Origin: Candidatus Kaiserbacteria bacterium
Lineage (GTDB): Bacteria > Patescibacteriota > Minisyncoccia > Phycocordibacterales > Phycocordibacteraceae
NCBI GenBank assembly: GCA_963813065.1
Contig: CAWEXP010000009.1
Location: 1,931-65,930, forward strand
Direction: 5' to 3'
Length of the DNA: 64,000 nt
Part shown: piece by piece, positions 12,861-41,395 of the stretch
Layout: each line of letters starts with the position of its first letter
Position numbering within the stretch: the stretch's first letter is position 1
The notes under the pieces: generated by a model
Databases searched by the model: none
The model's input: the letters and a program-made list of their open reading frames with translations, nothing else
Told to the model about the DNA's origin: nothing
Position numbers and translations under genes: made by a program

Positions 12861-13923
12861 CGCGCATTCTCATATGAATCCGAACACTCGCGGTATTGTG
12901 CGTGCATGAAAAAAGAAACGTTGGAAGCAGCTGAGCACGAGCGAGCGGTCTGAGATTTCAATACTGAAGCGCAAGAAGTATTCGCTCCGTGCGATTGCTC
13001 GAGCTCTTGGCCGCAGTGTTTCCAGCATCTCGGAAGAGTTGAAGAGGAATCGAGTGCGAGGTTTGTATGATGTACAGAAGGCTGCACACAAGGCGTATGC
13101 ACGAAGAAAGTACGCGAAGTATCAAGGCATGAAGATCGTCGGGCATGCGGGTCTGCGTTCACTCGTGGAAGAGCTGTTGTATGACGACCAATCGCCCGAG
13201 AACATCGCCGGAAGAGTCCGGAAGTATGCCAAGCGTCTGCCGACCATCTCGAAAGACGGCGTGTACCGATTCATCAAAAGCGTGTATGGCCGGAGAATTG
13301 AGTCGCATCGGAACGCGCGAAAGCAGAAACGAAGAAAGTATCACCCGAGAGTCGCGGCTCTTTCAGAGCGAACCTTCATCGACAAACGGCCCAGGCATAT
13401 CAACGCTCGTTCGAGGAGCGGAGATGTCGAGGCTGACTTCATTGTCTCGGGCAAGACTGGCAGAGGCATCCTGCTCGTGGTGGTCGACCGGAAGCTCCGC
13501 GTCACGTTCATCGAACGCATTCTCGATGTGTCAGTGGCGAACGTGCACCGGGCATTCCTCCGCATTCAACAGAGATTCCCCGAGCTCCGCACCATCACCA
13601 CTGACAACGATATTTTGTTCCAGATCATCAGGCACTCGCCACTCTTCTGGGGGTGCGCATCTATTTCTGTCGGCCGTATCACTCCTGGGAGAAAGGAACG
13701 GTTGAGAATACAAACGGCGTCATACGCAAAGACATACCGAAAGGCGCAAACATTTCTCGCTATTCAAAGGCATTTATACAAAAGCTCGAGGACAAGCTGA
13801 ACCGGAGGATACTGAAATGCCTCCAATACAAAACTCCGGCGGAAGCATTAGCTGCGGTACGGAAACGAAAAAAGCGCCGAGGCGCATGAAATTCGAGTGT
13901 TCGGATTGAGCCCGTCGAGCGGG
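12861..13923 (+). mobile_element. IS30-family insertion sequence, copy 1 (1063 bp; 3-bp TSD AGA)
   Basis: Ends CGCGCATTCTCATATGAATCCGAACACTCG ... CGAGTGTTCGGATTGAGCCCGTCGAGCGGG share the inverted core AATCCGAACACTCG. The flanks are acAGA|IS|AGAta. The copy is identical to 40332-41395 except for a 1-bp deletion. Confidence 0.85.
12906..13889 (+). pseudogene. IS30 family transposase, copy 1 (extra 1-bp deletion at ~13618 splits the DDE domain)
   Basis: The HTH region ...KKKRWKQLSTSERSEISILKRKKYSLRAIARALGRSVSSISEELKRN... lies in the +1 frame relative to the ATG at 12906. The DDE region ...TTDNDILF follows. This copy reads ttccagatc where copy 2 reads ttccgagatc. Confidence 0.8.
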
Positions 13924-14016
13924 AGATAGGAATTGATTTCAATATACACCCTTATGCAAATCTGTCAAAGTTTTAAAATGGGCTAGGGATTCTCGGGCAA
14001 TTTGGATTTGCCCGAG

Positions 14017-14045
14017 TTGACGGCTGGGAGAGACTCGTGTATCTT
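14017..14045 (+). promoter_or_regulatory. candidate promoter (TTGACG-17-TATCTT) re-initiating transcription of rpsS and downstream genes after the IS30/island insertion
   Basis: -35/-10-like hexamers with 17-nt spacing, 36 nt upstream of rpsS. Confidence 0.35.
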
Positions 14046-14049
14046 GCCT

Positions 14050-14078
14050 CTATCCCGTTCGGCGGGATATTTATTTCA
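14050..14078 (+). promoter_or_regulatory. terminator-like hairpin in the rpsS leader (possible attenuator)
   Basis: CCCGTTCGGCGGGATATTTATTT lies between the candidate promoter and the rpsS ATG. It is the same motif family as the hairpins at 10733 and 11204. Confidence 0.35.
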
Positions 14079-14080
14079 CT

Positions 14081-14485
14081 ATGGCACGATCACTCAAGAA
14101 GGGACCCTACGTGGACGTCAAACTCCTCAAAAAGGTCCAAAAAGCTCAGTCCCGCACCGCGGGGGTGATTAAGACGTGGGCGCGCGGAAGCCGAATCAGC
14201 CCGGAAATGGTTGGTTTCACCTTCGGCGTCCACAACGGCAAGAGCCACATTGAGGTCCTCGTCTCTGAGGAGATGGTGGGGCATCGGCTCGGTGAATTCT
14301 CGCCGACCAAGAAGTTCATCCGCCACGGTGGCAAGATGCAGAAGGAGCTCGAACAGAAGCGCCAGGAGTCGGAGGTCGCCGCCGCCAAGGCCGCCTCTGC
14401 CGCTCCGCCGCTAAGAAATAATTTGTATGAAAGCGACTCTCGAAAGCCACAATCAGTCCCCGCGCAAGGTCCGCCTCGTGGCTGA
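14081..14485 (+). CDS. rpsS: 30S ribosomal protein S19; 3' boundary uncertain (reads 59 nt into rplV)
   Basis: [19 protein letters not shown]...[45 protein letters not shown]... The ORF runs ~40 aa past the usual S19 end to a TGA at 14483. Confidence 0.7.
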
Positions 14486-14744
14486 CCTCGTGAAAGGGAA
14501 GAAGGTCCCGGCGGCGCTCTCGGCGCTCGCGTTCCTCCCCAAGCGCGCGAGCGAGCCAGTCGCCAAGCTCATCAAGAGCGCGGCCGCTAATGCCAAGGAC
14601 AAGGGCGAGAACCCGAAGAGCTCACGATAGGTCAATCACCCGTCGAGAGCGCGGAAATGTCGAAGCGTTTCATGCCGCCACGCCTTCGGCCGCGCCTCGG
14701 CGATTCGCCACAAGAAGAGCCGCATTAAGGTCGTCCTCGCGTAA
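14427..14744 (+). pseudogene. rplV: 50S ribosomal protein L22 with an in-frame TAG at 14628-14630
   Basis: [27 protein letters not shown]...[55 protein letters not shown]. Homology to L22 continues in the same frame across the stop. Confidence 0.7.
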
Positions 14745-14749
14745 CTTCT

Positions 14750-15439
14750 ATGACTCACACCGTACATCCCTATGCGCACCGCCTCGGCATCATCCGCGAC
14801 TGGAAGAGCCGTTGGTTCGCCGCCGACAAGAAGAGCTACCGCGAGAATATCAAGGTAGACGCCGCACTCCGCGCCTTCCTCGAGAAGAAGCTCCACGGTA
14901 CCTACACCTCGGGTATCGACATCGAGCGCTCGGCGACCGAGCTCCGCGTGATCCTGGCCACCGCCCGCCCCGGCTCGTGATTGGTCGCTCGGGCGAGAAC
15001 GCCGCCGAGCTCCGCGCCGAGATCACTAAGGTCGCCCGCAAGGTGGCGCCTCTTGATCGCCGCACGGTGAAGTTCGATATCGTCGAAGTGCGCCAGCCGG
15101 AGACAGACGCGGCGGTCGTCGCGGCGATGGTCGCCGAAGGCCTTGAGAAGCGTATGCCCTTCCGCCGCGTGCTCAAGCAGACGGTCGAGAAAGTGAAGGC
15201 CGTCCGCGAGGTCGAGGGCGTGCGCATCACGATCAGTGGCCGCCTCGGCGGCGCCGAGATGTCGCGCAAAGAGGAAATCAAGCGCGGACGCATCCCGCTC
15301 CAGACCTTCCGTGCGGACATCGACTGGCCTATGGCAAAGCTCCAGCTCCGTACGCGTCATCGACATCAAGGTTTGGATTTACCGCGGCAATATCTTCGCC
15401 GAGAAGAAGGCGGCAAGCCCGAGCCTCTCGCGGGCCTAA
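14750..15439 (+). pseudogene. rpsC: 30S ribosomal protein S3 with at least two frameshifts
   Basis: The N-terminus MTHTVHPYAHRLGIIRDWKSRWFA...ILATARPG ends at 14980. The next segment LVIGRSGENAAELRAEITK...GRLGGAEMSRKEEIKRGRIPLQTFRADID reads in another frame; a 1-nt deletion occurs at ggc(c)tcgtg. The C-terminus VIDIKVWIYRGNIF is in a third frame. Confidence 0.75.
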
Positions 15440-15448
15440 TACATTGCT

Positions 15449-15861
15449 ATGCTTTTCCCTAAAAAGTAAAACACCGCAAGTGGCAGACTCAGCGCAAGAG
15501 CGCTAGCGTCTCGCGCGCCCGGACACGCGCGGTACCTCAGTCTCTTCGGCTCCTTCGGACTCAAGGCGCTCACTTCGGCGCGTGTCACGAGCAACCAGAT
15601 TAAGCGGCGCGCAAAGTGCTCACCCGCGCAGTGGCCAAGAGCGGCAAGCTCTGATCGCATCTTCCCGATCGCCCCGTCACGGCGAAGCCGGCGGAGGTGG
15701 GCATGGGTTCGGGCAAGGGCGACCCGAAGCTCTACGTCTGAGGTGCGCCAGGTCGCGTACTCTTTGAGATTGACGGTGTCAGCGAGGCGGTGGCCCGCGC
15801 ACACCTCATCCAGGCAGGGTCGAAAGTGCCCGTGAAGACGAGCATCGTCGTGCGCCGTTAA
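15449..15861 (+). pseudogene. rplP: 50S ribosomal protein L16 with at least 2-3 frameshifts and two in-frame TGA codons
   Basis: MLFPKK then a stop. VKHRK... is in another frame and ...LSLFGSFGLKALTSARVTSNQI in a third. The segment [63 protein letters not shown]...VKTSIVVRR follows. The first TGA aligns with the conserved Trp of uL16. Confidence 0.7.
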
Positions 15862-15893
15862 TTGCAGTATTTCAATATATATGGCAAAGAGAG

Positions 15894-16085
15894 ATGACAT
15901 GCATAAGAAGACAGATCAGGAACATGCGCGCACTCCTCGCGAGCGAGCGGGTGAATCTGCACAAACTCCGCTTCGAGGCGGCGGGTGCGCGCCCCAAGGA
16001 TTCGAGCGCGCCGCGCGTGGCACGGAAGCAGATCGCACGTATACTGACCGAACAGCGTTCGCGCGTCATCAAGGCCACAAAATAA
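15894..16085 (+). CDS. rpmC: 50S ribosomal protein L29
   Basis: ...NLHKLRFEAAGARPKDSSAPRVARKQIARILT... has the uL29 LRFQ...G...VRR.IAR..T pattern. AAGAGAG lies upstream of the ATG. Confidence 0.55.
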   Translation: MTCIRRQIRNMRALLASERVNLHKLRFEAAGARPKDSSAPRVARKQIARILTEQRSRVIKATK

Positions 16086-16087
16086 AT

Positions 16088-16351
16088 ATGGAAAACAAAA
16101 CCCCTCGTCCCCAATCGTTCACTGGCACCGTCGTCAAGACGGCGATGAAGGTACGGCCACCGTGCGCGTCGACCGCTCGTGAAGCATGCGAAGTACAAGA
16201 AGTATTTCGTTCGCTCCAAGAAGTACTCGTGCACGATGCGGGCAACACGGCGGCGGTGGGCGACAAGGTCACTATCGTTGCGACGCGCCCCATTTCGAAG
16301 TTGAAGCGCTTCGCGATTGCTTCAACGACGCTCAGCACCGGCAAAAAATAA
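16088..16351 (+). pseudogene. rpsQ: 30S ribosomal protein S17 with three 1-nt deletions
   Basis: Homologous segments in three frames: MENKTPRPQSFTGTVVKTAMK, GTATVRVDRS, VKHAKYKKYFVRSKKYS, and VHDAGNTAAVGDKVTIVATRPISKLKRF. Every shift goes in the same -1 direction. Confidence 0.65.
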
Positions 16352-16352
16352 T

Positions 16353-16730
16353 ATGTTGCAACCTCAATCAATCGTCATGGTGGCAGATAACTCCGGAGGG
16401 CAGATTGCCCGCATCTTCAAGGTGCCCGGAGGTTCTAAGCGCCGCTATGCTGCCATCGGCGATATCGTCGTCGTTTCGATCCAGACCGCTCAGCCGCGCA
16501 AGGCGGTGAAAAAGAAAGAGATTTACAAGGCGGTGGTCGTCCGTCAGGTCAAGCCGTTTGCCCGCAAAGACGGTTCCTACATTCGCTTCGACGAGAACGC
16601 CGTGGTGCTGATCGAGAAGCAGGGCAAGGAGATGGGCCCCAAGGGTAACCGCGTCTTCGGTCCCGTACCGCGCGAGCTCACCGACCGCGGCTGGCACAAC
16701 ATCGCCTCGATTGCTCCGGAAGTCGTCTAA
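16353..16730 (+). CDS. rplN: 50S ribosomal protein L14
   Basis: MLQPQSIVMVADNSGG...GPVPREL...; intact. Confidence 0.9.
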   Translation: MLQPQSIVMVADNSGGQIARIFKVPGGSKRRYAAIGDIVVVSIQTAQPRKAVKKKEIYKAVVVRQVKPFARKDGSYIRFDENAVVLIEKQGKEMGPKGNRVFGPVPRELTDRGWHNIASIAPEVV

Positions 16731-16740
16731 TATTTTTAGT

Positions 16741-16965
16741 ATGAAACTCCACGTTAAAAAAGGCGACACGGTGAAGATTCTTTCCGGCAAGGACAAGGGC
16801 AAGAAAGGTCTCGTTATGCGCGCTCTGCCTAAGGAAGGGAAGGTTGTTGTCGAGGGCATTGCACTCGTCAAGCGCCATCTGCGCAAGCAGGGCGGCCAAT
16901 CGGGACACATCGTCGAGCGACCCGCCGCTATCGACGCTTCGAATGTCGCAAAGATCGAGAAATAA
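16741..16965 (+). CDS. rplX: 50S ribosomal protein L24
   Basis: MKLHVKKGDTVKILSGKDKGKKG...VEGIALVKRH... Confidence 0.9.
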   Translation: MKLHVKKGDTVKILSGKDKGKKGLVMRALPKEGKVVVEGIALVKRHLRKQGGQSGHIVERPAAIDASNVAKIEK

Positions 16966-16968
16966 TTT

Positions 16969-17541
16969 ATGAACATCACCAAACAACGCCAGCAAACCGC
17001 CTACGATGCGCTCCGCGCAGACTTCGGCTACACCTCGCCGATGCAGTCGCCGCGCGTGTTGAAGGCCATTGTCTCCACCGGCGTCGGTAAGAAGCGCGAT
17101 AAGAAGCAGATCGAGCTCATCAGCGAGCGCCTTGCCCGCATCACGGGACAGAAGGCGGCACCGCGCTCGGCCAAGCTCTCCATTGCATCCTTCAAGGTCC
17201 GCCAGGGCGATACGGTTGGCCTCCAGGTCACGCTCCATGGCGCACGCATGTTCGACTTCCTCGACAAGCTCATCCACATCGCGCTCCCGCGCACGCGCGA
17301 CTTCCGCGGTATTGCGGCCTCGGCCATCGACGACATGGGCAATATTACGATTGGCATCAAGGAGAACACCATCTTCCCGGAGACCTCCGATGAAGACCTT
17401 AAAGATGTCTTCGGTCTCGCCATCACCATCGTCACCACGGCCAAGTCGAAGAACGAGGCCGATGCCTTCCTCCGCCACCTCGGCGTCCCGCTCCGCCCGC
17501 TCGAAGAGCCCAAGGTGAAAGTACGAGCGAAGAAAAAATAA
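16969..17541 (+). CDS. rplE: 50S ribosomal protein L5
   Basis: 190 aa uL5; intact. Confidence 0.9.
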   Translation: MNITKQRQQTAYDALRADFGYTSPMQSPRVLKAIVSTGVGKKRDKKQIELISERLARITGQKAAPRSAKLSIASFKVRQGDTVGLQVTLHGARMFDFLDKLIHIALPRTRDFRGIAASAIDDMGNITIGIKENTIFPETSDEDLKDVFGLAITIVTTAKSKNEADAFLRHLGVPLRPLEEPKVKVRAKKK

Positions 17542-17760
17542 TCTCGTTTTACAAAAATTGAAATGGCCCGTGCGAGCGCGGGTCATTTCGTTTGCATTGT
17601 AGTACACGACGTTCTCACGGAGGCGCGCTATGCACAGGCATCCACTAAATACTGCTATAGCAGAAAATAAAGGATAGTGCGTAAAAGGATGGGAAGTTGC
17701 GTTTCTGCCAAGTTCGGGGTATGGTCGCGGCAGACGAAACGCTTACGAGAGGTGAATTCG

Positions 17761-17922
17761 ATGAGCATCTTTTCTATTTTAGGAATTGCGGCCTTGGTAA
17801 TAGGTCTACTCACACATCAAACTCCAAGTACTCGTGCCATCATTCTTTCCGCGTGTCTCGTCTTCTTCGGTATTGGATTCTTCTGGCCATCATTCTTGAT
17901 GGTGCCACCATACTGGAATTAA
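17761..17922 (+). CDS. small hydrophobic protein (2 TM) inserted between rplE and rpsN
   Basis: A GAGGTG Shine-Dalgarno precedes MSIFSILGIAALVIGLLTHQTPSTRAIILSACLVFFGIGFFWPSFLMVPPYWN. It is flanked by hairpins at 17563-17590 and 17931-17957. Confidence 0.3.
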   Translation: MSIFSILGIAALVIGLLTHQTPSTRAIILSACLVFFGIGFFWPSFLMVPPYWN

Positions 17923-18034
17923 GGACATCAAACCCCGCTTCGGTGGGGTCTTTTTATAGGCAGGGGAGCGACGTTTGACGCCGGAAACCCTTGGTGATAC
18001 AGTGCTCGCACGCTCCTCGGAGCTTTTATTTTGT

Positions 18035-18304
18035 ATGGCAAAGAAATCCCAGATTGCACGGCAGGCAAAACGCGAGAAGCTCGTGGCGAAATTCGCTACT
18101 AAGCGCGCGGCTCTTAAGTCTGCCGGTGACTGGGATGGCCTGCAGGCGCTCCCGAAGAACTCTTCGCCGGTGCGGTTGAAGAATCGTTGCTCCGCGACCG
18201 GTCGTAGCCGCGGGTATATGCGCGCCTTTGGGCTCTCGCGCATCGAGTTCCGCGAGCTCGCACGCGCGGGCAAGATTCCGGGCGTGAAGAAGGCTTCTTG
18301 GTAA
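18035..18304 (+). CDS. rpsN: 30S ribosomal protein S14 (long form)
   Basis: [20 protein letters not shown]...[39 protein letters not shown]. Confidence 0.85.
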
Positions 18305-18318
18305 TTTTCGATACTGCT

Positions 18319-18723
18319 ATGACCACCGACAAAGTTGGCGATTTCATCATCCGTTTGCAGAATGCGAGCATGATTGGCCGCGCTACGACGAGCGCACCGT
18401 ATTCCAAGCACCTCGAATCCATCGCGCGCAAGCTGAAGGCGCTCGGCTTTGTGAGCGAGGTTGCGGTCGATGCTAAAGATGAAGCGGGCGTGAAGAAGAA
18501 TCTCATCGTCACCCTCGCGTACGATGCGCGCGGCAAGGCGAAGATTCACGGTGTGAAGCGCATCTCTAAGCCGGGTCGCCGCCTCTATGTCGGTCACACT
18601 GACGCCCACTCGGTCGAGGGTGGCACGGGCGCACGCATCATCTCGACGCCTTCCGGTATCTACTCGGATCGCGACGCGCGCTCCAAGCGTGTCGGTGGCG
18701 AGAACATGTTCGAAATTTGGTAA
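18319..18723 (+). CDS. rpsH: 30S ribosomal protein S8
   Basis: MTTDKVGDFIIRLQNASMIG...; the ORF-track start at 18298 is an extension. Confidence 0.9.
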   Translation: MTTDKVGDFIIRLQNASMIGRATTSAPYSKHLESIARKLKALGFVSEVAVDAKDEAGVKKNLIVTLAYDARGKAKIHGVKRISKPGRRLYVGHTDAHSVEGGTGARIISTPSGIYSDRDARSKRVGGENMFEIW

Positions 18724-18725
18724 CT

Positions 18726-19256
18726 ATGAGCCGCCTCGCTAAAAAACCGATTGCCGTAGGGAAAGCCCAAGTCTCCTTCTCGGGCGACACCTTGACCATC
18801 AAGGGTGCGAAGGCGACGCTGAACAAGCGCGTGCATCCGGCTATCGGCATCGAGGTCACGCCAGAAGGCGTCGTCATTTCTGCGAAGAATACGTCCCGCC
18901 TCGCCAAGGCTCTGACCGGCACCTTCGCCTCGCACGTCCGCAACATGCTCAAGGGCGTCGACACGCCGTTCGTCACCAAGCTCATTCTCGAAGGCGTCGG
19001 CTACAAGGTCGAGGTAAAAGGGAAGGAGCTCGTCTTCCAGGTCGGTAAGTCGCATGCAGTCAAGCTTGCCATTCCTGAGGAGGTCTCTGCGACCGCCGAG
19101 AAGAATCTCATCACCCTCACGGGCGCGGACAAAGAGGTCGTCGGCCAGTTCGCCGCGAACATCCGCCGCGTGAAGCCGCCGGAGCCGTATCTCGGCAAGG
19201 GCATTCGCTACGAGGGCGAAGTCATCCGCCGCAAGCAGGGCAAGAAGGCCGTCTAA
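18726..19256 (+). CDS. rplF: 50S ribosomal protein L6
   Basis: MSRLAKKPIAVGKAQVSFSGDTLTIKG... Confidence 0.9.
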   Translation: MSRLAKKPIAVGKAQVSFSGDTLTIKGAKATLNKRVHPAIGIEVTPEGVVISAKNTSRLAKALTGTFASHVRNMLKGVDTPFVTKLILEGVGYKVEVKGKELVFQVGKSHAVKLAIPEEVSATAEKNLITLTGADKEVVGQFAANIRRVKPPEPYLGKGIRYEGEVIRRKQGKKAV

Positions 19257-19265
19257 TATATTTTT

Positions 19266-19616
19266 ATGAATCGCGCATCCACCACCAAAGAAGGACTCCG
19301 CCAGCGCCGCCACGCGCGCGTTCGCGCACGCATCTCGGGCACGGCGACGCGCCCGCGCCTCGCGGTCTTCAAGAGCAATCGTTTCGTCTCGGTACAGCTC
19401 ATCGACGACGTTGCGGGGAAGACCCTCGCGGCCGCGCATGGTCGCGCGACCAAGGGCTCTCAGCTCGTGCAGGCCAAGGCGGTCGGTGCAGAAATTGCCG
19501 GAGCGGCGAAGAAGCTCGGCGTCACGACGGTCGTCTTCGATCGTGGTGGTTATCAATATGCCGCGCTTATCAAGGCGCTCGCCGATGAGGCGCGCGCGGG
19601 CGGTCTCGCTTTTTAA
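19266..19616 (+). CDS. rplR: 50S ribosomal protein L18
   Basis: ...RPRLAVFKSNRFVSVQLIDDVAGKTLAAA...VVFDRGGYQYAALIKALADEARAGGLAF. Confidence 0.9.
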   Translation: MNRASTTKEGLRQRRHARVRARISGTATRPRLAVFKSNRFVSVQLIDDVAGKTLAAAHGRATKGSQLVQAKAVGAEIAGAAKKLGVTTVVFDRGGYQYAALIKALADEARAGGLAF

Positions 19617-19621
19617 ATAGT

Positions 19622-20230
19622 ATGGAACCTACAAAAGACACACCGGAAATCATCGCGACGCCCGCTGTCGCTGAAGCTATGGCGGGCAAGCCGGCGGCGC
19701 GCCCGACCTTCAATCGTAATGCGCGCGGTTCGATTCGCGGACGATCACCGCACGGCCGCGGCTCCGCGGGCGGCCGTGCTCCCCGCGAGCGCAGTGAGTT
19801 CGACCAGGTGACTATCGACGCCCGCCGCGTGGCGCGCGTGATGGCCGGCGGTCGCCGTTTCAATTTCTCTATTGCGGTCGTTATCGGCGACAAGAAGGGT
19901 CGTGTGGGCGTCGGACTCGGCAAGGCCGCTGACACCGCACTCGCCATCGAGAAGGCAACCCGCGACGCGAAGAAGAATCTCATCACGGTCGCGCGCACCA
20001 AGAATAATTCCATCCCGCATGCGGTTGGCGCCAAGTATGCATCCTCGACCGTTGAGATTCGCCCCAGCCCGGGTCGCGGTCTCGTCGCGGGCTCGGCGAT
20101 GCGCACCGTGCTCGACGCGGCCGGCATCACCGATGTCGTGACCAAGATCAGCACGCGTTCGAAAAATAAGCTCACCATCGCGCGTGCCACCGTCGCCGCG
20201 CTCACGACGCCTCCGCTCCTAATTCCACTT
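19622..20230 (+). CDS. rpsE: 30S ribosomal protein S5; 3' end uncertain
   Basis: ...RVMAGGRRFNFSIAVVIGDKKGRVGVGLGKAADTALAIEKATRDAKKN...KLTIARATVAAL... The reading frame has no stop until 20419, inside rplO, so a terminal indel is likely. No L30 gene lies between rpsE and rplO. Confidence 0.75.
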
Positions 20231-20232
20231 TT

Positions 20233-21967: not shown

Positions 21968-21983
21968 TTTCAGCAGTGCCAAA

Positions 21984-22016
21984 CAAGCCCGCGCCGATTA
22001 CGGCGCGGGCTTGTTT
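21984..22016 (+). terminator. intrinsic terminator after secY (GCGCCGATTACGGCGC stem-loop)
   Basis: aagcccgcgccgattacggcgcgggcttgttttt. Confidence 0.7.
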
Positions 22017-22077
22017 TTATTCTGCATATGTTGTACTCTATTCCCCAGAGCAATCTCGCTCATTGAAGGAGTGCGCG

Positions 22078-22899: not shown

Positions 22900-22962
22900 T
22901 ACAGTGCGCCGGCTATATCGCCGGCGCTTTTTCTATATGCCCCGCAGTGATACACTCGACAG

Positions 22963-31357: not shown

Positions 31358-31412
31358 GAATCTGCGGTGTATGCTAGGTTTCCGGCAGGAAACCCGCACC
31401 TTGGAGAAACGA

Positions 31413-32186: not shown

Positions 32187-32234
32187 ACCACACGCCCCCC
32201 ACTCGGGGGCGTTTTTATTAGGTATACTGGGGGC

Positions 32235-33637: not shown

Positions 33638-33728
33638 TACTAAATAGTATACGGCATAAAATTAAAATAATTGACGACGAACTGCTTCGACGGTAGTCTG
33701 CCCGCAGATAGCCAGCGAGGAGAAACGC

Positions 33729-34139
33729 ATGGACCGAAAGATAACTGAAGTTTGTGAACAGTTGTTTCAACGGGCACTGAAAGAAGGCGTGTGGACCGCG
33801 AACGCCGATAACAGCGATAACGGTAATGGTCCGTATATTGGTGGTTGGCAGAAATATTTCACGTATGCCACACTCCAACAAAACGAGATCACCATCAAGG
33901 CAACGCGCACCAACTGGAGAACCTTCAATCTGAGCATCGACCGCGAAGGAACCAACTACCATATTGAAGTGTTCCAAGGTACGGAATGTATCTTCGCCGC
34001 TAAGCGCAAAGGATTCATGCGCACAAAAAGCTTTACCGGCTCCTCTGAACGCTTCGCGAGCCGGAGCGTCATACCCGAGACGGCTTGGCAGGTGACTGAG
34101 GGAACGCTTCCCGAACCACTACTCGTCGCATCCGTTTGA
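33729..34139 (+). CDS. hypothetical protein, tandem paralog A
   Basis: 136 aa, ~60% identical to the next gene. It has its own promoter-like region and a terminator (34150-34180). Confidence 0.5.
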   Translation: MDRKITEVCEQLFQRALKEGVWTANADNSDNGNGPYIGGWQKYFTYATLQQNEITIKATRTNWRTFNLSIDREGTNYHIEVFQGTECIFAAKRKGFMRTKSFTGSSERFASRSVIPETAWQVTEGTLPEPLLVASV

Positions 34140-34250
34140 TTCGACCCAACCCCGCCAATGGCGGGGTTTTCTTTGCCAGTGTGAAATACATTTGACAATG
34201 AACTGCCCGAAGCGTAGCCTGCGCACAGGTAACCAATCTGGGAGAAACTG

Positions 34251-34664
34251 ATGGACAACAAGATCGTTGACGCCTGTGAGCAACTGTATCAGCGAGCAAT
34301 GAAAGAAGGAGTGCGGACCACAAGCTCTGATGGCGACCGTGAAAGCGACGGTTCGTATGTGAGGGGTTGGCAGAAATATTTTACGTATGCCACGCTCCAG
34401 CAGGACGACAACGTCATCAAGGCCACACACGCCGATTGGAAGACATTTAACCTAAATTCTGATCGTGAAGGAACTAGCTTCCGTATCGAAGTTTCCAAGG
34501 GTACGGAAGTTGTCTTCGCTGCCGAGCGTGAAGGATTCTTACGGACAAACAATTTCTCAGGTTCCGACGAGCGGTTTGCGGGTCGAAGTGTAACGCCCGA
34601 GACGGCTTGGAAAGTAGTGCAAGGAACATTTCCTGAGCAATTGCTTATTGCGCCACCAGCCTGA
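34251..34664 (+). CDS. hypothetical protein, tandem paralog B
   Basis: 137 aa. The upstream 60 nt are conserved with paralog A. Terminator 34670-34700. Confidence 0.5.
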   Translation: MDNKIVDACEQLYQRAMKEGVRTTSSDGDRESDGSYVRGWQKYFTYATLQQDDNVIKATHADWKTFNLNSDREGTSFRIEVSKGTEVVFAAEREGFLRTNNFSGSDERFAGRSVTPETAWKVVQGTFPEQLLIAPPA

Positions 34665-34718
34665 TTCATTACGTCACCCCGCTCACAAAGCGGGGTTTTT
34701 GTTTGCTATGCTAGTGGC

Positions 34719-35441
34719 ATGGCACTCGTATTCGATATTGAAACGGTAGGGGAAGAATGGGATGCGCTCGACGAGCCCACGCAAGGCGCGCTCACGCGGT
34801 GGATTAAACGCGAAAGCAAGACGGAGGAGGAATATACAGTCGCGCTCGCCGACATGCAACTCGGGCTCGGCCTCTCGCCCTTGACCGGGAGCATCGTCGC
34901 GATTGGCGTCTACGACACGGAGAAGAAAAAGGGCGCCGTGTACTTTTCTGCGCCCGACAAGAAAATAAAAGAGAGCGAGATTGAATATCCCGAGCAGGGC
35001 AGGGCAGTCATCAAATATAAAGCGATGGAAGAAAAGGAGATGCTCGAAAACTTTTGGCAGGGTGCGAAAGGCTACGAAGAATTCGTCACCTACAATGGTC
35101 GCGGTTTCGATGCGCCCTTCCTCGCCATCCGCTCGATTGCGCATCACGTGAAGCCGACGCGCGATCTCCTCGCCGGTCGCTACCTCTACCAGCAGAGAGG
35201 CTGTCTGCACATCGACCTCCAGGACCAGCTCACCTTCTACGGCGCGTGGAATAAAAAGCCCTCGCTCCACCTCTTCTGCCGCGCCTTCGGCATACCGAGC
35301 CCCAAGGCCTCGGGCACCACGGGCGACGACGTCGCGCTCCTCTACCAGGAGAAAAAATATCTCGAGATTGCGACCTATAACGCCGGTGACCTTTTCGCCA
35401 CCGCGGCGCTTTACGAGCGATGGAAGGAGAGTGTACGGTAG
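34719..35441 (+). CDS. predicted 3'-5' exonuclease of the PolB-exonuclease-like (RNase H-fold) family
   Basis: Exo I motif FDIET. ...YNGRGFDAPFL... and ...YNAGDLFATAALYERW... match Exo II/III. Confidence 0.6.
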   Translation: MALVFDIETVGEEWDALDEPTQGALTRWIKRESKTEEEYTVALADMQLGLGLSPLTGSIVAIGVYDTEKKKGAVYFSAPDKKIKESEIEYPEQGRAVIKYKAMEEKEMLENFWQGAKGYEEFVTYNGRGFDAPFLAIRSIAHHVKPTRDLLAGRYLYQQRGCLHIDLQDQLTFYGAWNKKPSLHLFCRAFGIPSPKASGTTGDDVALLYQEKKYLEIATYNAGDLFATAALYERWKESVR

Positions 35442-35516
35442 TCTCGCCCCGGGGAATCCTTTTTCGGGGGTTATCCCCACCAGCGCAATTTTCTAGAAGC
35501 GGTAGAGTAGTGGGAT

Positions 35517-36050
35517 ATGAAAATACTTGCCATTTCGGGGAGCTTGAGAAAGGACTCGTTTAATAGCGCATTGGTGCGGGCATTGGCGCAATTGGCGCCC
35601 GCGGGCGTGGAGGTTGAGCAGGCAGAGATTGGCAATTTGCCACTCTACAATACCGATCTCGAGGCTGCATTCCCGGCCGAGGCGACGGCGCTGAAGCAGA
35701 AGATAGAATCTGCCGACCGAATCATTTTTGTGACACCGGAGTATAACCGCTCGATTTCTGGAGTGTTGAAGAACGCCATCGACTGGGCGAGCCGCCCGTG
35801 GGGCAAAAATTCTTTTGCCGGCAAGGTGGCACTCATCGCAGGTGTCTCGGTAGGGAAGACGGGCACTGCGCTCGCGCAGGCGCACTTGAAGGACATTTTG
35901 CTCTATCTCGATATGAAAGTGTTGGGGCAACCCGAGCTCTATCTCGGCCCTGCCTCGGCAATCTTCGATGAGCACGGCATGATTAAAGAAGAGTCGACGA
36001 AGGAGTTGCTGAGTAAAGCTATCGCGACGCTGGTCGCTCACGCGGCATAG
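35517..36050 (+). CDS. NAD(P)H-dependent FMN reductase
   Basis: MKILAISGSLRKDSFNSAL...FVTPEYNRSISGVLKNAIDWASRP... Confidence 0.8.
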   Translation: MKILAISGSLRKDSFNSALVRALAQLAPAGVEVEQAEIGNLPLYNTDLEAAFPAEATALKQKIESADRIIFVTPEYNRSISGVLKNAIDWASRPWGKNSFAGKVALIAGVSVGKTGTALAQAHLKDILLYLDMKVLGQPELYLGPASAIFDEHGMIKEESTKELLSKAIATLVAHAA

Positions 36051-36157
36051 TTCCTGCGAACGGTACGCAATTTCTTTGCTAAGAAATTGCTCAGTCCTCA
36101 CGCCGTCGCGTTGCGGAGCCCGTTCTCGGAACTATGCCGTGTTCGCGAGTTACACTG
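36042..36157 (+). ncRNA. copy 1 of a ~115-nt structured repeat (candidate small RNA / 3'-UTR element); overlaps the fre stop codon
   Basis: ~80% identical to 46714-46828. Two hairpins, GCAATTTCTT-TGCT-AAGAAATTGC and ACGC-CGTC-GCGT, are maintained in the other copy by compensatory substitutions. Confidence 0.5.
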
Positions 36158-36180
36158 CGCGATTATGATAAGGTGTAACT

Positions 36181-36648
36181 ATGAATCGCGAACGGGATCT
36201 GCTCTGGTTTTTTGATCTCGCGCTCGTGTTGAAGATCGTCAACGGCGCGCTCGAGATGCTCGGCGCGTTCTTGATACTCGTCGTGCCGCCCATGTTTATT
36301 GTGCGGATTATCGAGATTGCGACCGCTGGTGAACTGGCGAACGATCCTGATGACTTCGTCGCGACGCACCTGCGCTCTGCGGCACAGACGTTCGCTGTCC
36401 ATACGCATTTCCTCATCGCGATTTATCTCATTCTCCACGGCGCCATCAAGATAGCGCTCGTGCTCGGCATCTTCGCGAAGAAACGCATCGCGTATCCGCT
36501 CTTCATGCTGGCGCTCGGCATCTTTGGCAGTTACGAGGCATATCTGGGGATAACGCGGCATGAGAATTTGCTTGGGGTGCTCGCCGTTTTCGACTGCATG
36601 TTGCTGGTCCTCACGCTCTACGAGTATCGTCGCCGTCTGGTATACTAA
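36181..36648 (+). CDS. DUF2127-like integral membrane protein
   Basis: 4-5 hydrophobic helices. The antisense ORF 36163-36687 is rejected. Confidence 0.45.
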   Translation: MNRERDLLWFFDLALVLKIVNGALEMLGAFLILVVPPMFIVRIIEIATAGELANDPDDFVATHLRSAAQTFAVHTHFLIAIYLILHGAIKIALVLGIFAKKRIAYPLFMLALGIFGSYEAYLGITRHENLLGVLAVFDCMLLVLTLYEYRRRLVY

Positions 36649-36674
36649 ACATATTATCCGTAGCATATGTTGAT

Positions 36675-36953
36675 ATGAGAAACGCATGGTTGTGGGTGCT
36701 CGCGGTGCTGGTTCTGCTCGCGCTCGCCGGAGGGTATTGGTATATGCAGATGAGTCAGGGCGCAGGAGCGAACACCGAGCCAGCTACGGCTGTGTCGACC
36801 ACGACACCTGATCAGAGCGCGGCAACGAACGTGACTCCCGCCGCCGCACTTTCGGCGCGTGACAATTCAGATGCGTCGCTCAACACGGACCTAGGCGACA
36901 TTAACAGCCAGATGACCGGTCTCGCCTCTGACTCGCAGGCGGCCGCGCAATAA
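36675..36953 (+). CDS. small exported/anchored protein
   Basis: N-terminal TM/signal, then a low-complexity Ala/Thr/Ser-rich region. Confidence 0.3.
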   Translation: MRNAWLWVLAVLVLLALAGGYWYMQMSQGAGANTEPATAVSTTTPDQSAATNVTPAAALSARDNSDASLNTDLGDINSQMTGLASDSQAAAQ

Positions 36954-36957
36954 TCCT

Positions 36958-37777
36958 ATGAAGCACTTCAATTCTTCGCTCATCGCGAGCATCGTCGCTG
37001 GGCTCGTACTCGCAACGCCTGTCTTTGCGCAGTCGGTCACGGCGACCGCCTCGGTTACCAGTGGCACGATGATGCCCGTCGGTGTCAGCGCACGCGCCGC
37101 GCGTCTCGCCTCCACCACGGCCGCGCGCGCGGTCCTCGCAGAGAGCGCGCTCGCGAAGGCAATCGCAAATGCGAACCAGCAAATCGAGATGCGTGTTGCG
37201 AGCCTCAATCAGCTCGGCACGCGTATCCAAGCGATGGCGCACCTTACCGCCGACGAGAAAACGTCTATCGCTGGCATTATCTCGGGCGACCTCTCCTCGC
37301 TTGGTGATCTGCAAGCCAAGATCGATAGCGACGCGACTTCGAGCGTGAAGGCCGACATTCAATCGATTACCAAGGGCGAGCGCATCTATATGCTCGTCGA
37401 ACCACAGACCAACATTCTCGCGGCCGCCGATCGCGCCGCGTCGATTGGCGACATGCTGACTGCGCTCGCAGGGAAAATCGAGACGCGTTTGAGCGCGACA
37501 CCGAATGCGACGGCATCCTCGCTTCTCGCCGACCTCCAGGCGAAGGTCGCAGATGCCCAGACACAGGCCTCCGCCGCAATCTCTGAGACCTCGACGCCTC
37601 CAGCCGGACAACGGCAATACGACCATCGCCGCGAGCAACACTTCTGCGTTGAAGGATGCGCGGAGCAAAATTAAAACCGCACAAGCCGACTTACAGGCCG
37701 CCGACAAAGATGCGAGCGGCGTCGTGAAGGCGCTCAAGGGTTCTGCCAGTGCCAGTGCAACCACGACCGTACAATAA
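36958..37777 (+). CDS. secreted Ala/Thr-rich protein, frameshift near 37605
   Basis: Signal peptide MKHFNSSLIASIVAGLVLATPVFA. The C-terminus continues in another frame (…QPDNGNTTIAASNTSALKDARSKIKTAQADLQ…). Confidence 0.4.
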
Positions 37778-37831
37778 TTACCAAACAAAAACACCGCGCG
37801 GCCGGAGGCCGCGCGGTGTTTTTCGTGCTCG

Positions 37832-38131
37832 TTATTTCGTGCTCGGTGCACCTGCCGCTGTGTTCGTTACGGTCGGCGGAATCATCTGGGTGCGCATGAC
37901 GCCGGTGTCGCCGGAATACATGACACCGCCGCCCCACCCCTGACTTTGCATCATGCGATAGCCCTCGTGCATACCGCCGCCGATGGTCGCGCGGATTTCG
38001 CCGAACTCGAAGCCGCACCAGAAGATGAAGAGCGCGATGACCACGGCAGTCAGGCCGCGTATCGCGCGGTGGTGATGCCACTGGCACTTCCCGTCGCACT
38101 TCATTCCATTCTCACCGTTGTTCATGTCCAT
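37832..38131 (-). CDS. small Cys/His-containing membrane protein divergent from the sigma factor
   Basis: 99 aa with CDGKCQWHHH and a TM helix. A terminator lies at 37790-37830. Confidence 0.3.
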   Translation of the reverse strand: MDMNNGENGMKCDGKCQWHHHRAIRGLTAVVIALFIFWCGFEFGEIRATIGGGMHEGYRMMQSQGWGGGVMYSGDTGVMRTQMIPPTVTNTAAGAPSTK

Positions 38132-38231
38132 AGGAGTTCAAAAAGGATTAAGGCGAGCTGGCTCGCTTACTCAATACTACCCCATAGACGAATGTTTGTT
38201 TCAAGGATTGCGTAGTAAGATAGGCGGACCT

Positions 38232-38801
38232 ATGCCAGGGGAATTCACCGACGAGCAAATAGTCCGCCGTACGCTCGCCAACAAGGACGAGTTTGCGCTT
38301 CTTATCGAGCGATACGAGGCCAAGTTGAATCGCTATCTCCAGCGCCTCGGCCTCGCTCTGCCCGAGGATAGGGAAGATGTCTTGCAGAACGCGTTCATCA
38401 AGGCCTACAAAAATCTGAACAGCTTCGACCCCGATCTCTCGTTCTCGTCGTGGATCTATCGTATCGCGCACAACGAGGCGATGAGCTTCTTCCGCTCGCG
38501 ACAGGCGCGGCCGCAAGTCACCCTCTCTGAGGATTCGGAAAGTCTGCTTACGGAGCTTCGCGACGATTCAGCGGATACGGCGGCACTCTCGGAGCTCCGG
38601 CTCTCGAGCGCCGAGCTCGCGAAAGCCTTTGCGACGCTTGAACCGAAGTATCGCGATGTGCTGACTCTCCGCTTCTTCGAGGAACGCTCCTACACTGACA
38701 TGTCTGATATCCTACAAGTGCCGGTGGGGACCGTTTCAACCATGATTCATCGGGCCAAGAAAGCGCTCCGCTCTGCACTGCCAAAACATTTCATGCCATG
38801 A
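38232..38801 (+). CDS. ECF-type RNA polymerase sigma factor
   Basis: Regions 2 and 4: ...LQNAFIKAYKNLNSFDP...SSWIYRIAHNEAMSFFR... and ...VLTLRFFEERSYTDMSDILQVPVGTVSTMIHRAKKAL... Confidence 0.8.
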   Translation: MPGEFTDEQIVRRTLANKDEFALLIERYEAKLNRYLQRLGLALPEDREDVLQNAFIKAYKNLNSFDPDLSFSSWIYRIAHNEAMSFFRSRQARPQVTLSEDSESLLTELRDDSADTAALSELRLSSAELAKAFATLEPKYRDVLTLRFFEERSYTDMSDILQVPVGTVSTMIHRAKKALRSALPKHFMP

Positions 38802-39652
38802 CCGACCATTTTCACGAACAGAACATAATTCCCGACCCGCTCGCGCGGCGCGTGCTTGACCGTATCGACGCCGAGAAGGTCGCGCCGCGTCCGCGGTGGG
38901 AATTCGTCGGCGAGAATTATTTGTTCTGGAGCCTCGGCGCGCTCGCGGTGGTGCTCGGCGCATTCGCGTTCTCGGCCGCGCTCTTCGAGGTAACGAACGC
39001 GAGTTGGACATTGTATGCGGCGACGCACTCCAGCTTCATCGCCTTTTTTCTCTCGGTTGCGCCATTCCTCTGGGCCCTCGTGCTCGTGGTCTTCATCGGC
39101 ATCGGCTACGCGAACATTCGCCACACGAAGCGCGGCTATCGTTACTCGCTCGCCGTCATTGCGCTCGGCGCGGTGCTTACCTCGATAACACTCGGCACGG
39201 CGCTCTATGCGAGCGGGTGGGGTGGGGCAGTTGAGGAATCAATCGGCGACCACCCGCCCTTCTATCGACCGATTATGGTTGCAGAGCGCAATTGGTGGGA
39301 GGCGCCGGCACAAGGCGTTCTCGCGGGCGAGGTGCTCTCGGTGGCGAGCGATACTTCCTCGTTCGTGGTGAAAGATTTTTCCGGCACCATTCGCATTATT
39401 GACGCCGACGACCTGCGTGCACCTGACCTGCGGGAGCTTATCGTCGGCGCAACGGTGAGGATTATTGGTGCACCAGCGTCCGCGACGAGCACCGAGCACC
39501 TGTTCCACGCCTGTTTCGTCTTCCCCTGGAATGCGGACCAAGAAGTGGTCGTCCCACCTCCGGCGGGCGAAAGAAGTCCTGCTCCGGAGCGTAGTGATGA
39601 GTGTAAGGGCATCCGCCCTTACGGAGCGCTCCATGCGCTTCATGGAGAATAG
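38798..39652 (+). CDS. putative membrane anti-sigma factor
   Basis: Overlaps the sigma stop (ATGA). Has TM helices and a C-terminal extracytoplasmic domain. Confidence 0.5.
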   Translation: MTDHFHEQNIIPDPLARRVLDRIDAEKVAPRPRWEFVGENYLFWSLGALAVVLGAFAFSAALFEVTNASWTLYAATHSSFIAFFLSVAPFLWALVLVVFIGIGYANIRHTKRGYRYSLAVIALGAVLTSITLGTALYASGWGGAVEESIGDHPPFYRPIMVAERNWWEAPAQGVLAGEVLSVASDTSSFVVKDFSGTIRIIDADDLRAPDLRELIVGATVRIIGAPASATSTEHLFHACFVFPWNADQEVVVPPPAGERSPAPERSDECKGIRPYGALHALHGE

Positions 39653-39729
39653 TTAGGTTTTTACCTTGCTAGGGGCGATGCGCCGTTGCGAGCCGGTGCG
39701 TCGCCCTCTCCGTACCTGCTTTCTTTGCT

Positions 39730-40086
39730 ATGCTTAAATCTATGGTAAAAACGATATCACTCATCTTTGGCGTCATCCTGGCACTCCTCGGACTCCTGGG
39801 GTTCGTCAGTAACCCGCTCATTGGGGTGAACGCCATCTTTGCCACTGATGCGGTGCACAACGGTATCTATCTCCTCGTCGGCCTCGCGCTCCTCGGCGCC
39901 GGACGCTGGGCCAGCCCACGCGCTACGAGCCTCTGGCTCAAGAGCATCGGCATTTTTATATTTCTGCTGGGATTTATTTCGACGAACACCAACGCCGGCT
40001 GGCTCAATATTGCGCTCGGATTTGGCATCTTCTCGGCAAGCTATTGGCGGACTGATTCGGTACCCGTCAACGCGCGTGTGTCTTGA
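39730..40086 (+). CDS. small 4-TM membrane protein (DUF4383-like)
   Basis: 118 aa, hydrophobic. Confidence 0.4.
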   Translation: MLKSMVKTISLIFGVILALLGLLGFVSNPLIGVNAIFATDAVHNGIYLLVGLALLGAGRWASPRATSLWLKSIGIFIFLLGFISTNTNAGWLNIALGFGIFSASYWRTDSVPVNARVS

Positions 40087-40331
40087 GTAGTGCCGCGAAT
40101 TGTTCCTGCACTTTCTGTAATTTCGGCGCAATGATCACCTGGCAGTAGCCCTGGTTCTGGTTTTTCTCGTAGAAGTCGCGGTGGTATGCCTCGGCGGGGT
40201 AGAACTTCGTGAGTGGTGCAACCTCAGTAGCGATGGGCGCGCCCGTTTTCGCCGAAGCGTTGAGGCCGGCAATGAAATTCTCTGCAGAGTGTTTCTGCGC
40301 CTCAGAGGTATAGAGAATCAGCGAGCGATAC
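40082..40331 (-). pseudogene. msrA: msrA 3' half (split by IS30 copy 2)
   Basis: ...YRSLILYTSEAQKHSAENFIAGLNASAKTGAPIATEVAPLTKFYPAEAYHRDFYEKNQNQGYC... resumes directly after the IS end. Confidence 0.8.
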
Positions 40332-41395
40332 CCCGCTCGACGGGCTCAATCCGAACACTCGAATTTCATGCGCCTCGGCGCTTTTTTCGTTTCCGTACCG
40401 CAGCTAATGCTTCCGCCGGAGTTTTGTATTGGAGGCATTTCAGTATCCTCCGGTTCAGCTTGTCCTCGAGCTTTTGTATAAATGCCTTTGAATAGCGAGA
40501 AATGTTTGCGCCTTTCGGTATGTCTTTGCGTATGACGCCGTTTGTATTCTCAACCGTTCCTTTCTCCCAGGAGTGATACGGCCGACAGAAATAGATGCGC
40601 ACCCCCAGAAGAGTGGCGAGTGCCTGATGATCTCGGAACAAAATATCGTTGTCAGTGGTGATGGTGCGGAGCTCGGGGAATCTCTGTTGAATGCGGAGGA
40701 ATGCCCGGTGCACGTTCGCCACTGACACATCGAGAATGCGTTCGATGAACGTGACGCGGAGCTTCCGGTCGACCACCACGAGCAGGATGCCTCTGCCAGT
40801 CTTGCCCGAGACAATGAAGTCAGCCTCGACATCTCCGCTCCTCGAACGAGCGTTGATATGCCTGGGCCGTTTGTCGATGAAGGTTCGCTCTGAAAGAGCC
40901 GCGACTCTCGGGTGATACTTTCTTCGTTTCTGCTTTCGCGCGTTCCGATGCGACTCAATTCTCCGGCCATACACGCTTTTGATGAATCGGTACACGCCGT
41001 CTTTCGAGATGGTCGGCAGACGCTTGGCATACTTCCGGACTCTTCCGGCGATGTTCTCGGGCGATTGGTCGTCATACAACAGCTCTTCCACGAGTGAACG
41101 CAGACCCGCATGCCCGACGATCTTCATGCCTTGATACTTCGCGTACTTTCTTCGTGCATACGCCTTGTGTGCAGCCTTCTGTACATCATACAAACCTCGC
41201 ACTCGATTCCTCTTCAACTCTTCCGAGATGCTGGAAACACTGCGGCCAAGAGCTCGAGCAATCGCACGGAGCGAATACTTCTTGCGCTTCAGTATTGAAA
41301 TCTCAGACCGCTCGCTCGTGCTCAGCTGCTTCCAACGTTTCTTTTTTCATGCACGCACAATACCGCGAGTGTTCGGATTCATATGAGAATGCGCG
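40332..41395 (-). mobile_element. IS30-family insertion sequence, copy 2 (1064 bp; 3-bp TSD GTA), inserted in msrA
   Basis: Identical to copy 1 apart from one base. The flanks ...gagGTA|IS|GTAtcgc reconstruct the msrA codons G-T-E-Y-R-S. Confidence 0.9.
40366..41349 (-). CDS. IS30 family transposase, copy 2 (HTH in +1 frame after an A6 tract; 283-aa DDE ORF intact)
   Basis: The ORF 40366-41217 is intact, including ...TTDNDILFRDHQALATLLGVRIYFCRPYHSWEKGTVENTNGVIRKD... The N-terminal HTH lies upstream in the +1 frame relative to the ATG at 41349. Confidence 0.8.

Follow-up and report, generated by a model that had tools for sequence, protein, structure and literature searches.

Inverted IS30-family insertions in a Kaiserbacteria genome and a lineage-wide out-of-frame transposase start, possibly corrected by slippage on an A-run

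We analysed a 64,000-nucleotide stretch of DNA (hereafter the window) from a Candidatus Kaiserbacteria bacterium (GCA_963813065.1, contig CAWEXP010000009.1), in which two nearly identical copies of an insertion sequence (IS) of the IS30 family lie in inverted orientation on either side of a long segment of ribosomal and housekeeping genes. Copy 1 occupies 12861–13923 on the plus strand (1063 bp) and copy 2 occupies 40332–41395 on the minus strand (1064 bp), with 26,408 nt between them. The IS pair itself is routine: two insertions occurred recently, one of them knocked out a gene, and the pair is a potential substrate for inversion beside the ribosomal operons of a tiny genome of the Candidate Phyla Radiation (CPR; Patescibacteria). 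The transposase gene of the element, in contrast to the usual IS30 arrangement, is not translatable as written, and the same out-of-frame start followed by a run of A recurs throughout its CPR relatives. Here we describe the locus, the survey of relatives and the readings that may account for such a start.

Two inverted copies of one IS30-family element

The segment between the copies (13927–40328) runs rpsS-rplV-rpsC-rplP-rpmC-rpsQ-rplN-rplX-rplE-...-rplF-rplR-...-rplO-secY-adk-map-ndk and also holds a beta-CASP RNase gene, rplT/rpmI and others; its genes are co-oriented with rpsJ-rplB, which precede copy 1. An earlier reading of the bare sequence (the original prediction) had assigned ribosomal and housekeeping content to this segment, and rpsS to rplE, rplF, secY, adk, map, ndk and rplT were indeed found, with rplV, rpsC, rplP and rpsQ frame-broken. 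A repeat search of the window returned a single inverted pair, given as the arms 12860–13621/40635–41396 (100%) and 13613–13923/40332–40642 (99%). Global alignment of copy 1 with the reverse complement of copy 2 (1063 versus 1064 nt) leaves one 1-nt indel as the sole difference, reading TTCC-AGATC in copy 1 and TTCCGAGATC in copy 2, with copy 1 lacking one G between 13621 and 13622. The inverted pair is thereby borne out at its predicted coordinates by both the search and the alignment; the 'single nucleotide' said to separate the copies is one base as claimed, but it is a deletion in copy 1 and not a substitution. An independent Logan contig, L081 (1066 nt, from run ERR11630400), matches copy 2 at 1064/1064 nt and begins exactly at the left end of the IS. 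Its ending at the IS boundaries is the expected appearance, in a k-mer assembly, of a repeat with several genomic contexts.

The junctions read ...ACAGA/IS/AGATAGG for copy 1 and, in IS orientation, ...GAGTA/IS/GTATCGC for copy 2. Apart from 3-bp direct repeats, the flanks at the four junctions are unrelated: AGA at 12858–12860 is paired with AGA at 13924–13926 around copy 1, and GTA (TAC on the plus strand) at 40329–40331 is paired with the same triplet at 41396–41398 around copy 2. Each copy has its own target-site duplication, as predicted, and a shared identical flank, which the original prediction took as a sign of assembly duplication, was looked for and the flanks differ at all four junctions. 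The two copies are separate in situ insertions of one 1,064-bp element, each with a 3-bp duplication.

Family membership was assessed on the transposase frame of copy 2 (40366–41346, minus strand), which is open from the codon after a TGA to the stop and yields 327 amino acids once one A is removed near its start. This protein scores 185.7 bits against the IS30 profile NF033563 (cutoff 80; positions 1–264 of 267) and 55.6 bits against HTH_38 (residues 5–48), whereas the IS481 and IS21 models stay far under their own cutoffs. The rve domain is matched over residues 176–260 at 27.7 bits, which is below the Pfam cutoff of 32.6. A putative DDE triad, placed by motif, would consist of D177, D233 and E267; the IS30 DDE core has a spacing of about 55 and 33 residues. 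The element length falls in the range of IS30 elements (1.0–1.7 kb) and the frame is open for 326 codons. The assignment to the IS30 family made in the original prediction holds on these profile and domain matches, and the element is an IS30-family member on every feature tested except for a single uninterrupted open reading frame (ORF) with its own start.

The ends of the element are imperfect 30-bp terminal inverted repeats, situated in copy 1 at 12861–12890 (left, plus strand) and 13894–13923 (right). They agree at about 19–20 of 30 positions, with a tip CnCGC and a perfect 14-bp inner core AATCCGAACACTCG; the left end of copy 1 is built from the tip CgCGC, 11 asymmetric nucleotides and then this core (12877–12890). 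The 15-nt version of the core, GAATCCGAACACTCG, occurs in the window only at the four IS ends (4 matches versus 0.3 expected), and searching with it revealed no abutted-end junction in the window, whether of a circle or of an (IS)2 form. Relatives at 76–82% nucleotide identity have the same termini, CGCG(C/A)ATTC... and ...GTCG(A/G)GCGGG, and the geometry of tip, asymmetric stretch and core recurs in more than 60 relatives. Clean 3-bp duplications flank four relatives on long contigs (L010, GTT; L012, CAA; L014, AAA; L015, AAC). In species-representative genomes the nearest IS relatives show 49–64% identity and come nearly all from Patescibacteria metagenome-assembled genomes (MAGs), and the lineage of the element is found almost only in Patescibacteria.

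A transposase frame that lacks its own start codon

Both copies have a sole ATG (at 12906 in copy 1 and 41350 in copy 2) that is followed by six A residues and lies one base off the transposase frame. This slip-prone start spans 12906–12914 on the plus strand in copy 1 and 41342–41350 on the minus strand in copy 2. The frame set by the ATG runs into a stop after 15 codons in both copies; in copy 1, the transposase frame (+1) opens at 12910. The frame encoding the helix-turn-helix (HTH) and DDE regions opens, in both copies, directly after a TGA that overlaps the ATG, and from this stop to the HTH neither window copy contains an in-frame ATG, GTG or TTG. The transposase gene is thus not translatable as written. 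Deleting one A, or adding two, gives MKKKRWKQLSTSER... and the intact 327-amino-acid transposase. The original prediction called the IS clearly active in this genome; activity is plausible, but only through a recoding that the whole lineage seems to share, and 'clearly' does not stand, since the transposase frame lacks a start codon in both copies.

Several simpler accounts of this start were examined. A sequencing error at the A-run is ruled out, given that the A6 is also present in L081 and that ATG + A6 is kept in L082–L084, diverged relatives at 87, 81 and 80% amino-acid identity from three other, independent assemblies. An alternative genetic code that reads TGA as sense (code 4 or 25) was rejected, with SecY, GroEL-size ORFs and EF-Tu all full length in table 11 and with TAA, TAG and TGA alike serving as upstream in-frame stops in those relatives that need a −1 correction. 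We also considered a hidden in-frame start: the relatives at 80–87% identity have a TTG at the Leu of an 'HLS' motif, from which gene callers derive a 319-amino-acid protein, but the window has CTG at this position. Lys-rich residues upstream are conserved in the transposase frame. In databases, the entries for relatives (P0001–P0040) are called from an internal TTG, GTG or ATG (253–319 amino acids) or from a chance in-frame upstream ATG or GTG ('MHEK...').

The out-of-frame start recurs across CPR relatives

We surveyed 163 related loci from genomes and metagenomes, locating the transposase frame of each by tblastn. The CPR clade was defined by at least 49% identity and comprises 102 unique start regions; an outgroup at 34–43% identity, mostly non-CPR, comprises 33. 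An out-of-frame ATG with an A-run was found in 95/102 CPR elements, 58 of which need a +1 and 37 a −1 correction, leaving four with an in-frame ATG and three unclear. In the outgroup, the ATG is in frame in 30/33 elements, out of frame with an A-run in 1/33, and other or unclear in 2/33, and no run of at least five A is present in 28/33. None of the 95 out-of-frame CPR elements has an in-frame ATG, and only three carry a stray in-frame GTG or TTG upstream. Elements of the +1 class mostly have runs of A8, A7 or A6, those of the −1 class runs of A7.

The fraction of in-frame elements is far below the one-third expected if run length drifted freely (binomial P = 5e-13). Clustering at 70% identity (n = 47) gave 21 clusters purely of the +1 class, 18 purely of the −1 class, three in-frame, four mixed and one unclassifiable, and at 95% identity only 1/99 clusters was mixed. 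The downstream ORF extends over at least 300 codons in 105/108 elements, and the peptides encoded in the ATG frame (4–75 codons) are unconserved across the clade. Given this deficit of in-frame starts, the intact ORFs and the unconserved ATG-frame peptides, we conclude that the out-of-frame start is a selected, lineage-wide feature.

Sequences upstream of the ATG point to a putative promoter close to it. When the clade is aligned on the ATG, TAnnnT falls exactly at −12 to −7 in 60/93 elements, and the individual positions resembling a −10 box are T-12 in 65/89, A-11 in 79/89 and T-7 in 71/89; a TG at −15/−14 is frequent before this box. A Shine-Dalgarno (SD)-like motif precedes the ATG in only 4/93 elements. 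In 67/95 elements the first A-run begins at +4, and in no element does it begin later than +9. In the window, the −10-like hexamer is TATTGT at 12894–12899 in copy 1 (plus strand), 6 nt upstream of the ATG, with its equivalent in copy 2 at 41357–41362 (minus strand). A sigma-70 −35 box was sought in the left end of the IS and rejected, its spacing to the −10 being just 12–14 nt; the putative promoter would rely on an extended −10 only.

Insertion of copy 2 into msrA

Copy 2 lies within msrA, of which ORF analysis and reconstruction delimit a 5' part (MNTETAV...GTEY, 41396–41679) and a 3' part (RSLILY...KTHAR-stop, 40067–40331), both on the minus strand. Removing copy 2 and one GTA in silico rejoins ...QGPDTGTEY/RSLILYTSEAQ... 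into an open MsrA frame, which is restored only when exactly 3 bp are taken out besides the IS. In a profile search, the rebuilt MsrA covers Pfam PMSR over positions 1–153 of 153 (205 bits) and matches TIGR00401 at 180 bits, which agrees with the clean split of msrA that had been proposed; the insertion inactivates msrA. An intact msrB (SelR) lies at 42857–43228 on the minus strand, 1.5 kb from the disrupted msrA; at this locus the host is therefore left with just the R-specific methionine sulfoxide reductase.

The two insertions took place recently, as the copies differ by only one base and the msrA halves have not decayed. The original prediction had drawn recency from the single-nucleotide difference; recency itself stands, on the near-identity of the copies and the undecayed halves, but an argument from that one base does not, the base being unreliable.

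The copy 1 deletion and the consensus quality of the window

The 1-nt deletion breaks the transposase frame of copy 1 after codon ~239, between D233 and E267, whereas the catalytic part of copy 2 is intact. Taken at face value, it would abolish catalysis and leave copy 1 dead. The window, however, carries at least seven one-base deletions in essential ribosomal genes, and between 14427 and 16350 rplV, rpsC, rplP and rpsQ are each spread over two or three frames. As encoded, rplV (L22) covers profile positions 3–62 of 104, and two frame changes extend this to 4–103 of 104 at 103.6 bits. Compared with a 90%-identical homologue, rpsC (S3) has residues 1–75 in frame 2, 74–200 in frame 1 and 204–221 in frame 2. 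Both rplP (L16) and rpsQ (S17) are split in a like manner, and rplP also has an apparent in-frame stop. Where junctions were reconstructed by eye, all lesions are one-base deletions in short G or C runs. The pieces of the broken proteins are otherwise ~90% identical to their nearest homologues, in a stretch of 61–62% GC, which fits clustered indel errors of the consensus and not decay or pseudogenes.

The deletion in copy 1 may likewise be a consensus error, because it is of the same kind as the other one-base deletions of the window, it stands against read-supported sequence, and repeats are hard to polish. We consider an artefact and a real deletion about equally likely, so the two copies may in fact be identical. 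Elsewhere in the window, a comparison with another read-based contig (L164) showed agreement at 2129/2130 positions and no gaps. The clustered one-base deletions in essential genes call for caution against over-reading single-base differences in this window.

Gene neighbourhood

Once its frame is repaired, the S3 protein of the host shares 90% identity with one NCBI protein and 84% with a Candidatus Kaiserbacteria S3. Exact look-ups of the protein P0010, S19, the L22 fragment and L14 gave no hit, and L081 and L164 were the only further contigs retrieved from the apparent source sample. Upstream of copy 1 the gene order is tuf (4717–6084), rpsJ, rplC, rplD, rplW and rplB (9213–10064), and rpsS follows only at 14081; the S10 operon is interrupted here, ~4 kb of non-ribosomal DNA (10065–14080) lying between rplB and rpsS. 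Besides copy 1, this island contains two ORFs without a family, a DUF3298 protein (11229–11996, minus strand), a coiled-coil ORF (12049–12426) and a 105-amino-acid ORF (12459–12776, minus strand). Copy 1 sits in non-coding DNA 157 bp upstream of rpsS. It did not split the S10 operon itself and landed in an island that already interrupted it.

A promoter-like site, TTGACG-17-TATCTT, lies at 14017–14045 on the plus strand, and because it falls between copy 1 and rpsS (14081), its position suggests that rpsS could be expressed without read-through from upstream. A second, strong promoter-like site, TTGACA-16-TATATT (11/12; 13941–13968), lies on the minus strand and is now directed into the right end of copy 1. 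In the sequence without the IS it would have stood ~100 nt upstream of the ORF at 12459–12776, and copy 1 may have uncoupled the two.

The coiled-coil ORF just before copy 1 (12049–12426) has a paralogue at 6977–7291, between rpsJ and rplC (34% identity, E = 5e-9), and both lie inside the ribosomal-protein cluster. Further upstream, the region 584–4150 holds an IS66-family element, with a TnpB fragment (584–1006) and TnpC (1003–2760), upstream of a piece of EF-G. This piece (3761–4150, EFG_C) represents only the C-terminus and is followed by tuf; fusA is apparently truncated or frame-broken. Within the bracketed segment, tandem paralogues at 33729–34139 and 34251–34664 share 62% identity over 134 amino acids.

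Discussion

We regard it as likely that four things hold jointly at this locus: a Patescibacteria (Kaiserbacteria-like) host, two independent insertions, a lineage-wide out-of-frame start, and a leaderless mRNA with programmed slippage. Tentatively, and with somewhat less than even confidence, we propose that, throughout a CPR-specific branch of the IS30 family, no transposase is made until RNA polymerase has stuttered on the A-run at +4 of that leaderless mRNA. In this model, the −10 box 6 nt before the ATG would set the predicted transcription start at the A of the ATG, giving a leaderless mRNA that begins AUGAAAAAA. RNA polymerase would slip on the A-run while the RNA-DNA hybrid is still short, and a minority of transcripts, having lost one A or gained two, would encode the in-frame 327-amino-acid transposase. 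The scarcity of such transcripts would keep transposition rare.

The choice of RNA polymerase draws on two sets of published observations. Orthologues that use ribosomal frameshifting hold to one direction, whereas transposases that use transcriptional realignment occur as +1 and −1 versions (PMC3711429). Runs of ~9 are favoured for slippage in elongation; at initiation, with its short hybrid, far shorter A/T tracts are enough (PMC12709180). We prefer slippage by RNA polymerase because the +1 and −1 classes are mixed in this clade (58 and 37 elements), the direction pattern of transcriptional realignment, and because short tracts slip at initiation. The clade also combines a homopolymer conserved at the frame transition in nearly all elements with intact downstream ORFs. 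The window run, at A6, is below the 8–9 A/T associated with elongation slippage; we therefore place the putative slip at initiation, where shorter tracts near the start site suffice.

Several observations weigh against this proposal. The TATTGT box of the window's own copy is weak and has no TG before it, and its A6 is shorter than the run of most relatives (A7–A8) and well under the ~9 favoured for elongation slippage. Known cases of reiterative initiation use tracts at +1 to +3 and leave reading frames unchanged (PMC12709180). The L017 element (A8, out of frame, from a Portnoybacteria MAG) and the L137 element (A7, in frame, on a 27.7-kb metagenome contig) are the same IS with identical upstream sequence; this difference in run length means that switching at the DNA level also exists. 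No matching 3-bp duplication flanks the relatives on contigs of ~1–2 kb (L083, L084, L001 and L086), which are probably chimeric repeat contigs. The local consensus indels weaken any statement about a single base; the A6 has read support through L081, and the copy 1 deletion has none. The transcription start, the site of the slip (in RNA polymerase rather than in the ribosome or the DNA) and the actual activity of the element are predictions made from sequence.

The same mixture of +1 and −1 classes weighs against a correction by the ribosome, in which the tRNA-Lys would slip by +1 or −1 on AAA AAA just after initiation, through programmed frameshifting or sliding on poly-A. The A-run lies in codons 2–4, where this tRNA could re-pair perfectly in both directions, and poly-A heptamers are classical shift sites (PMC3711429). 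Yet direction is normally conserved among orthologues, no conserved downstream or SD-like stimulator was seen in the clade alignment, and the X_XXY_YYZ phase is not maintained, so that we think a ribosomal correction rather unlikely. Slipped-strand mispairing during replication could instead alter the A-run in the DNA, leaving most copies OFF while rare ON cells transpose. The L017/L137 pair and the in-frame minority (4/102) are what such phase variation would produce, but it is an unlikely account of the clade as a whole: mixed clusters are as rare as 1/99 at 95% identity, both fresh window copies and L081 are all OFF, exactly A6 is kept in relatives that have diverged to 80–87%, and tracts of A6–A8 are short for frequent replication slippage. 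It is very unlikely that the two copies are simply defective relics that relied on an intact copy elsewhere for their movement. Neither has an in-frame start and copy 1 is frameshifted in its DDE region, as inactivation would have it, but the same 'defect' is shared by 95/102 relatives with intact ORFs (300 or more codons in 105/108) and in-frame starts rarer than chance; moreover, the two copies are identical to each other and retain their duplications intact, and the deletion in copy 1 resembles the window's consensus errors in kind.

The intact duplications also bear on how the pair arose. A composite transposon would have moved both IS copies along with the intervening DNA as a 28.5-kb unit, and IS30-family elements are known to form compound transposons, for example ISApl1/Tn6330 (bioRxiv 10.1101/2023.06.07.543989); here, too, a segment is bracketed by two full IS copies. 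Such a unit has one duplication common to both outer ends, but the outer flanks here are AGA and TAC. We conclude, in line with the original prediction, that there were two independent insertions, because a separate matching duplication surrounds each copy, the outer flanks disagree, and the msrA halves lie inside and outside the bracket on either side of copy 2. With the interior also carrying on the S10/spc/secY operon order begun by rpsJ-rplB upstream, a composite origin is highly improbable, and the bracketed segment is not mobile cargo. We give almost no credence to an assembly artefact in which one IS locus was duplicated or misjoined. The window does contain local consensus errors, and an IS repeat breaks short-read graphs, as the ends of L081 at the IS boundaries illustrate, but the four junction flanks are wholly different, the two duplications are different and clean, and msrA is split precisely enough to be restored to the base.

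In principle, the 1-kb inverted repeat could invert the 26.4-kb segment by homologous recombination. The original prediction had raised this possibility, and 1 kb of inverted identity makes it a reasonable suggestion, but there is no sign that it has occurred. Evidence of an empty site or of the inverted isomer was sought, and none of the contigs within reach spans either junction. Like the inverted IS pairs that serve as substrates of chromosomal inversion, the copies are 99.9–100% identical over 1 kb, inverted, and 26.4 kb apart; both, however, retain their own duplications and the operon order is native. Since each copy keeps its own repeat pair, no odd number of inversions has taken place between them since insertion, and the matching duplications together with the co-orientation of rpsS and the following genes with rpsJ-rplB argue that there has been no net inversion so far.

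In most respects the element resembles the established IS30 family (IS30 of E. coli, ISApl1, IS1655, IS4351), with which it shares a length of ~1.06 kb, an N-terminal HTH_38, a DDE core of roughly 55/33-residue spacing, ~30-bp imperfect inverted repeats and a 3-bp duplication. It departs from the family in a transposase that lacks an in-frame start and has to be corrected by +1 or −1 on an A-run in codons 2–4, in inverted repeats that are perfect only in a 14-bp subterminal core while the outer 16 nt are systematically unlike between left and right, and in a lineage nearly confined to Patescibacteria. Frameshift use is listed only for the IS1, IS3, IS5 and IS630 families (review PMC5009743). 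In the literature library that was searched, we found no paper that connects IS30 to slippage or frameshifting, or that describes CPR IS30 elements.

Two known systems come close to the proposed mechanism. Programmed transcriptional realignment in IS630, IS3 and IS5 transposases (for example Roseiflexus IS630) likewise involves an A-run at the frame transition and orthologues of the +1 or −1 type, and its presumed role is also to throttle transposase production. In those elements, however, slippage joins a real orfA, encoding a DNA-binding protein, to orfB deep in the transcript, usually on runs of at least 8–9, whereas in the present elements the upstream 'ORF' amounts to Met-Lys-Lys, there is no second protein product, and an A6–A8 run lies at +4 of a predicted leaderless mRNA. 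Reiterative initiation (at pyrBI, codBA, upp and pyrG, and in its productive form genome-wide) resembles the proposed slip in placing a homopolymer tract among the first transcribed nucleotides, with short tracts being enough (PMC12709180). In the known cases the tract begins at +1 to +3, and bases are added within 5' leaders without setting a frame, whereas the tract considered here follows a 5'-terminal AUG and would decide the frame, with a start site predicted from the −10 consensus.

If the slippage is programmed, it would explain the systematic truncation and mis-starting of these transposases in CPR MAG annotations. The IS30 family would join the mobile elements that use recoding, as the first recoding reported for this family. 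Slippage within the first nucleotides of a leaderless transcript would here serve to set a frame and, if true, this would be the first case in which reiterative or early-transcript slippage determines the frame in which a protein is read from codon 2 onward. For the CPR bacteria that carry these elements, such a start would amount to a built-in throttle on transposition, possibly one that is sensitive to ATP or other nucleoside triphosphates.

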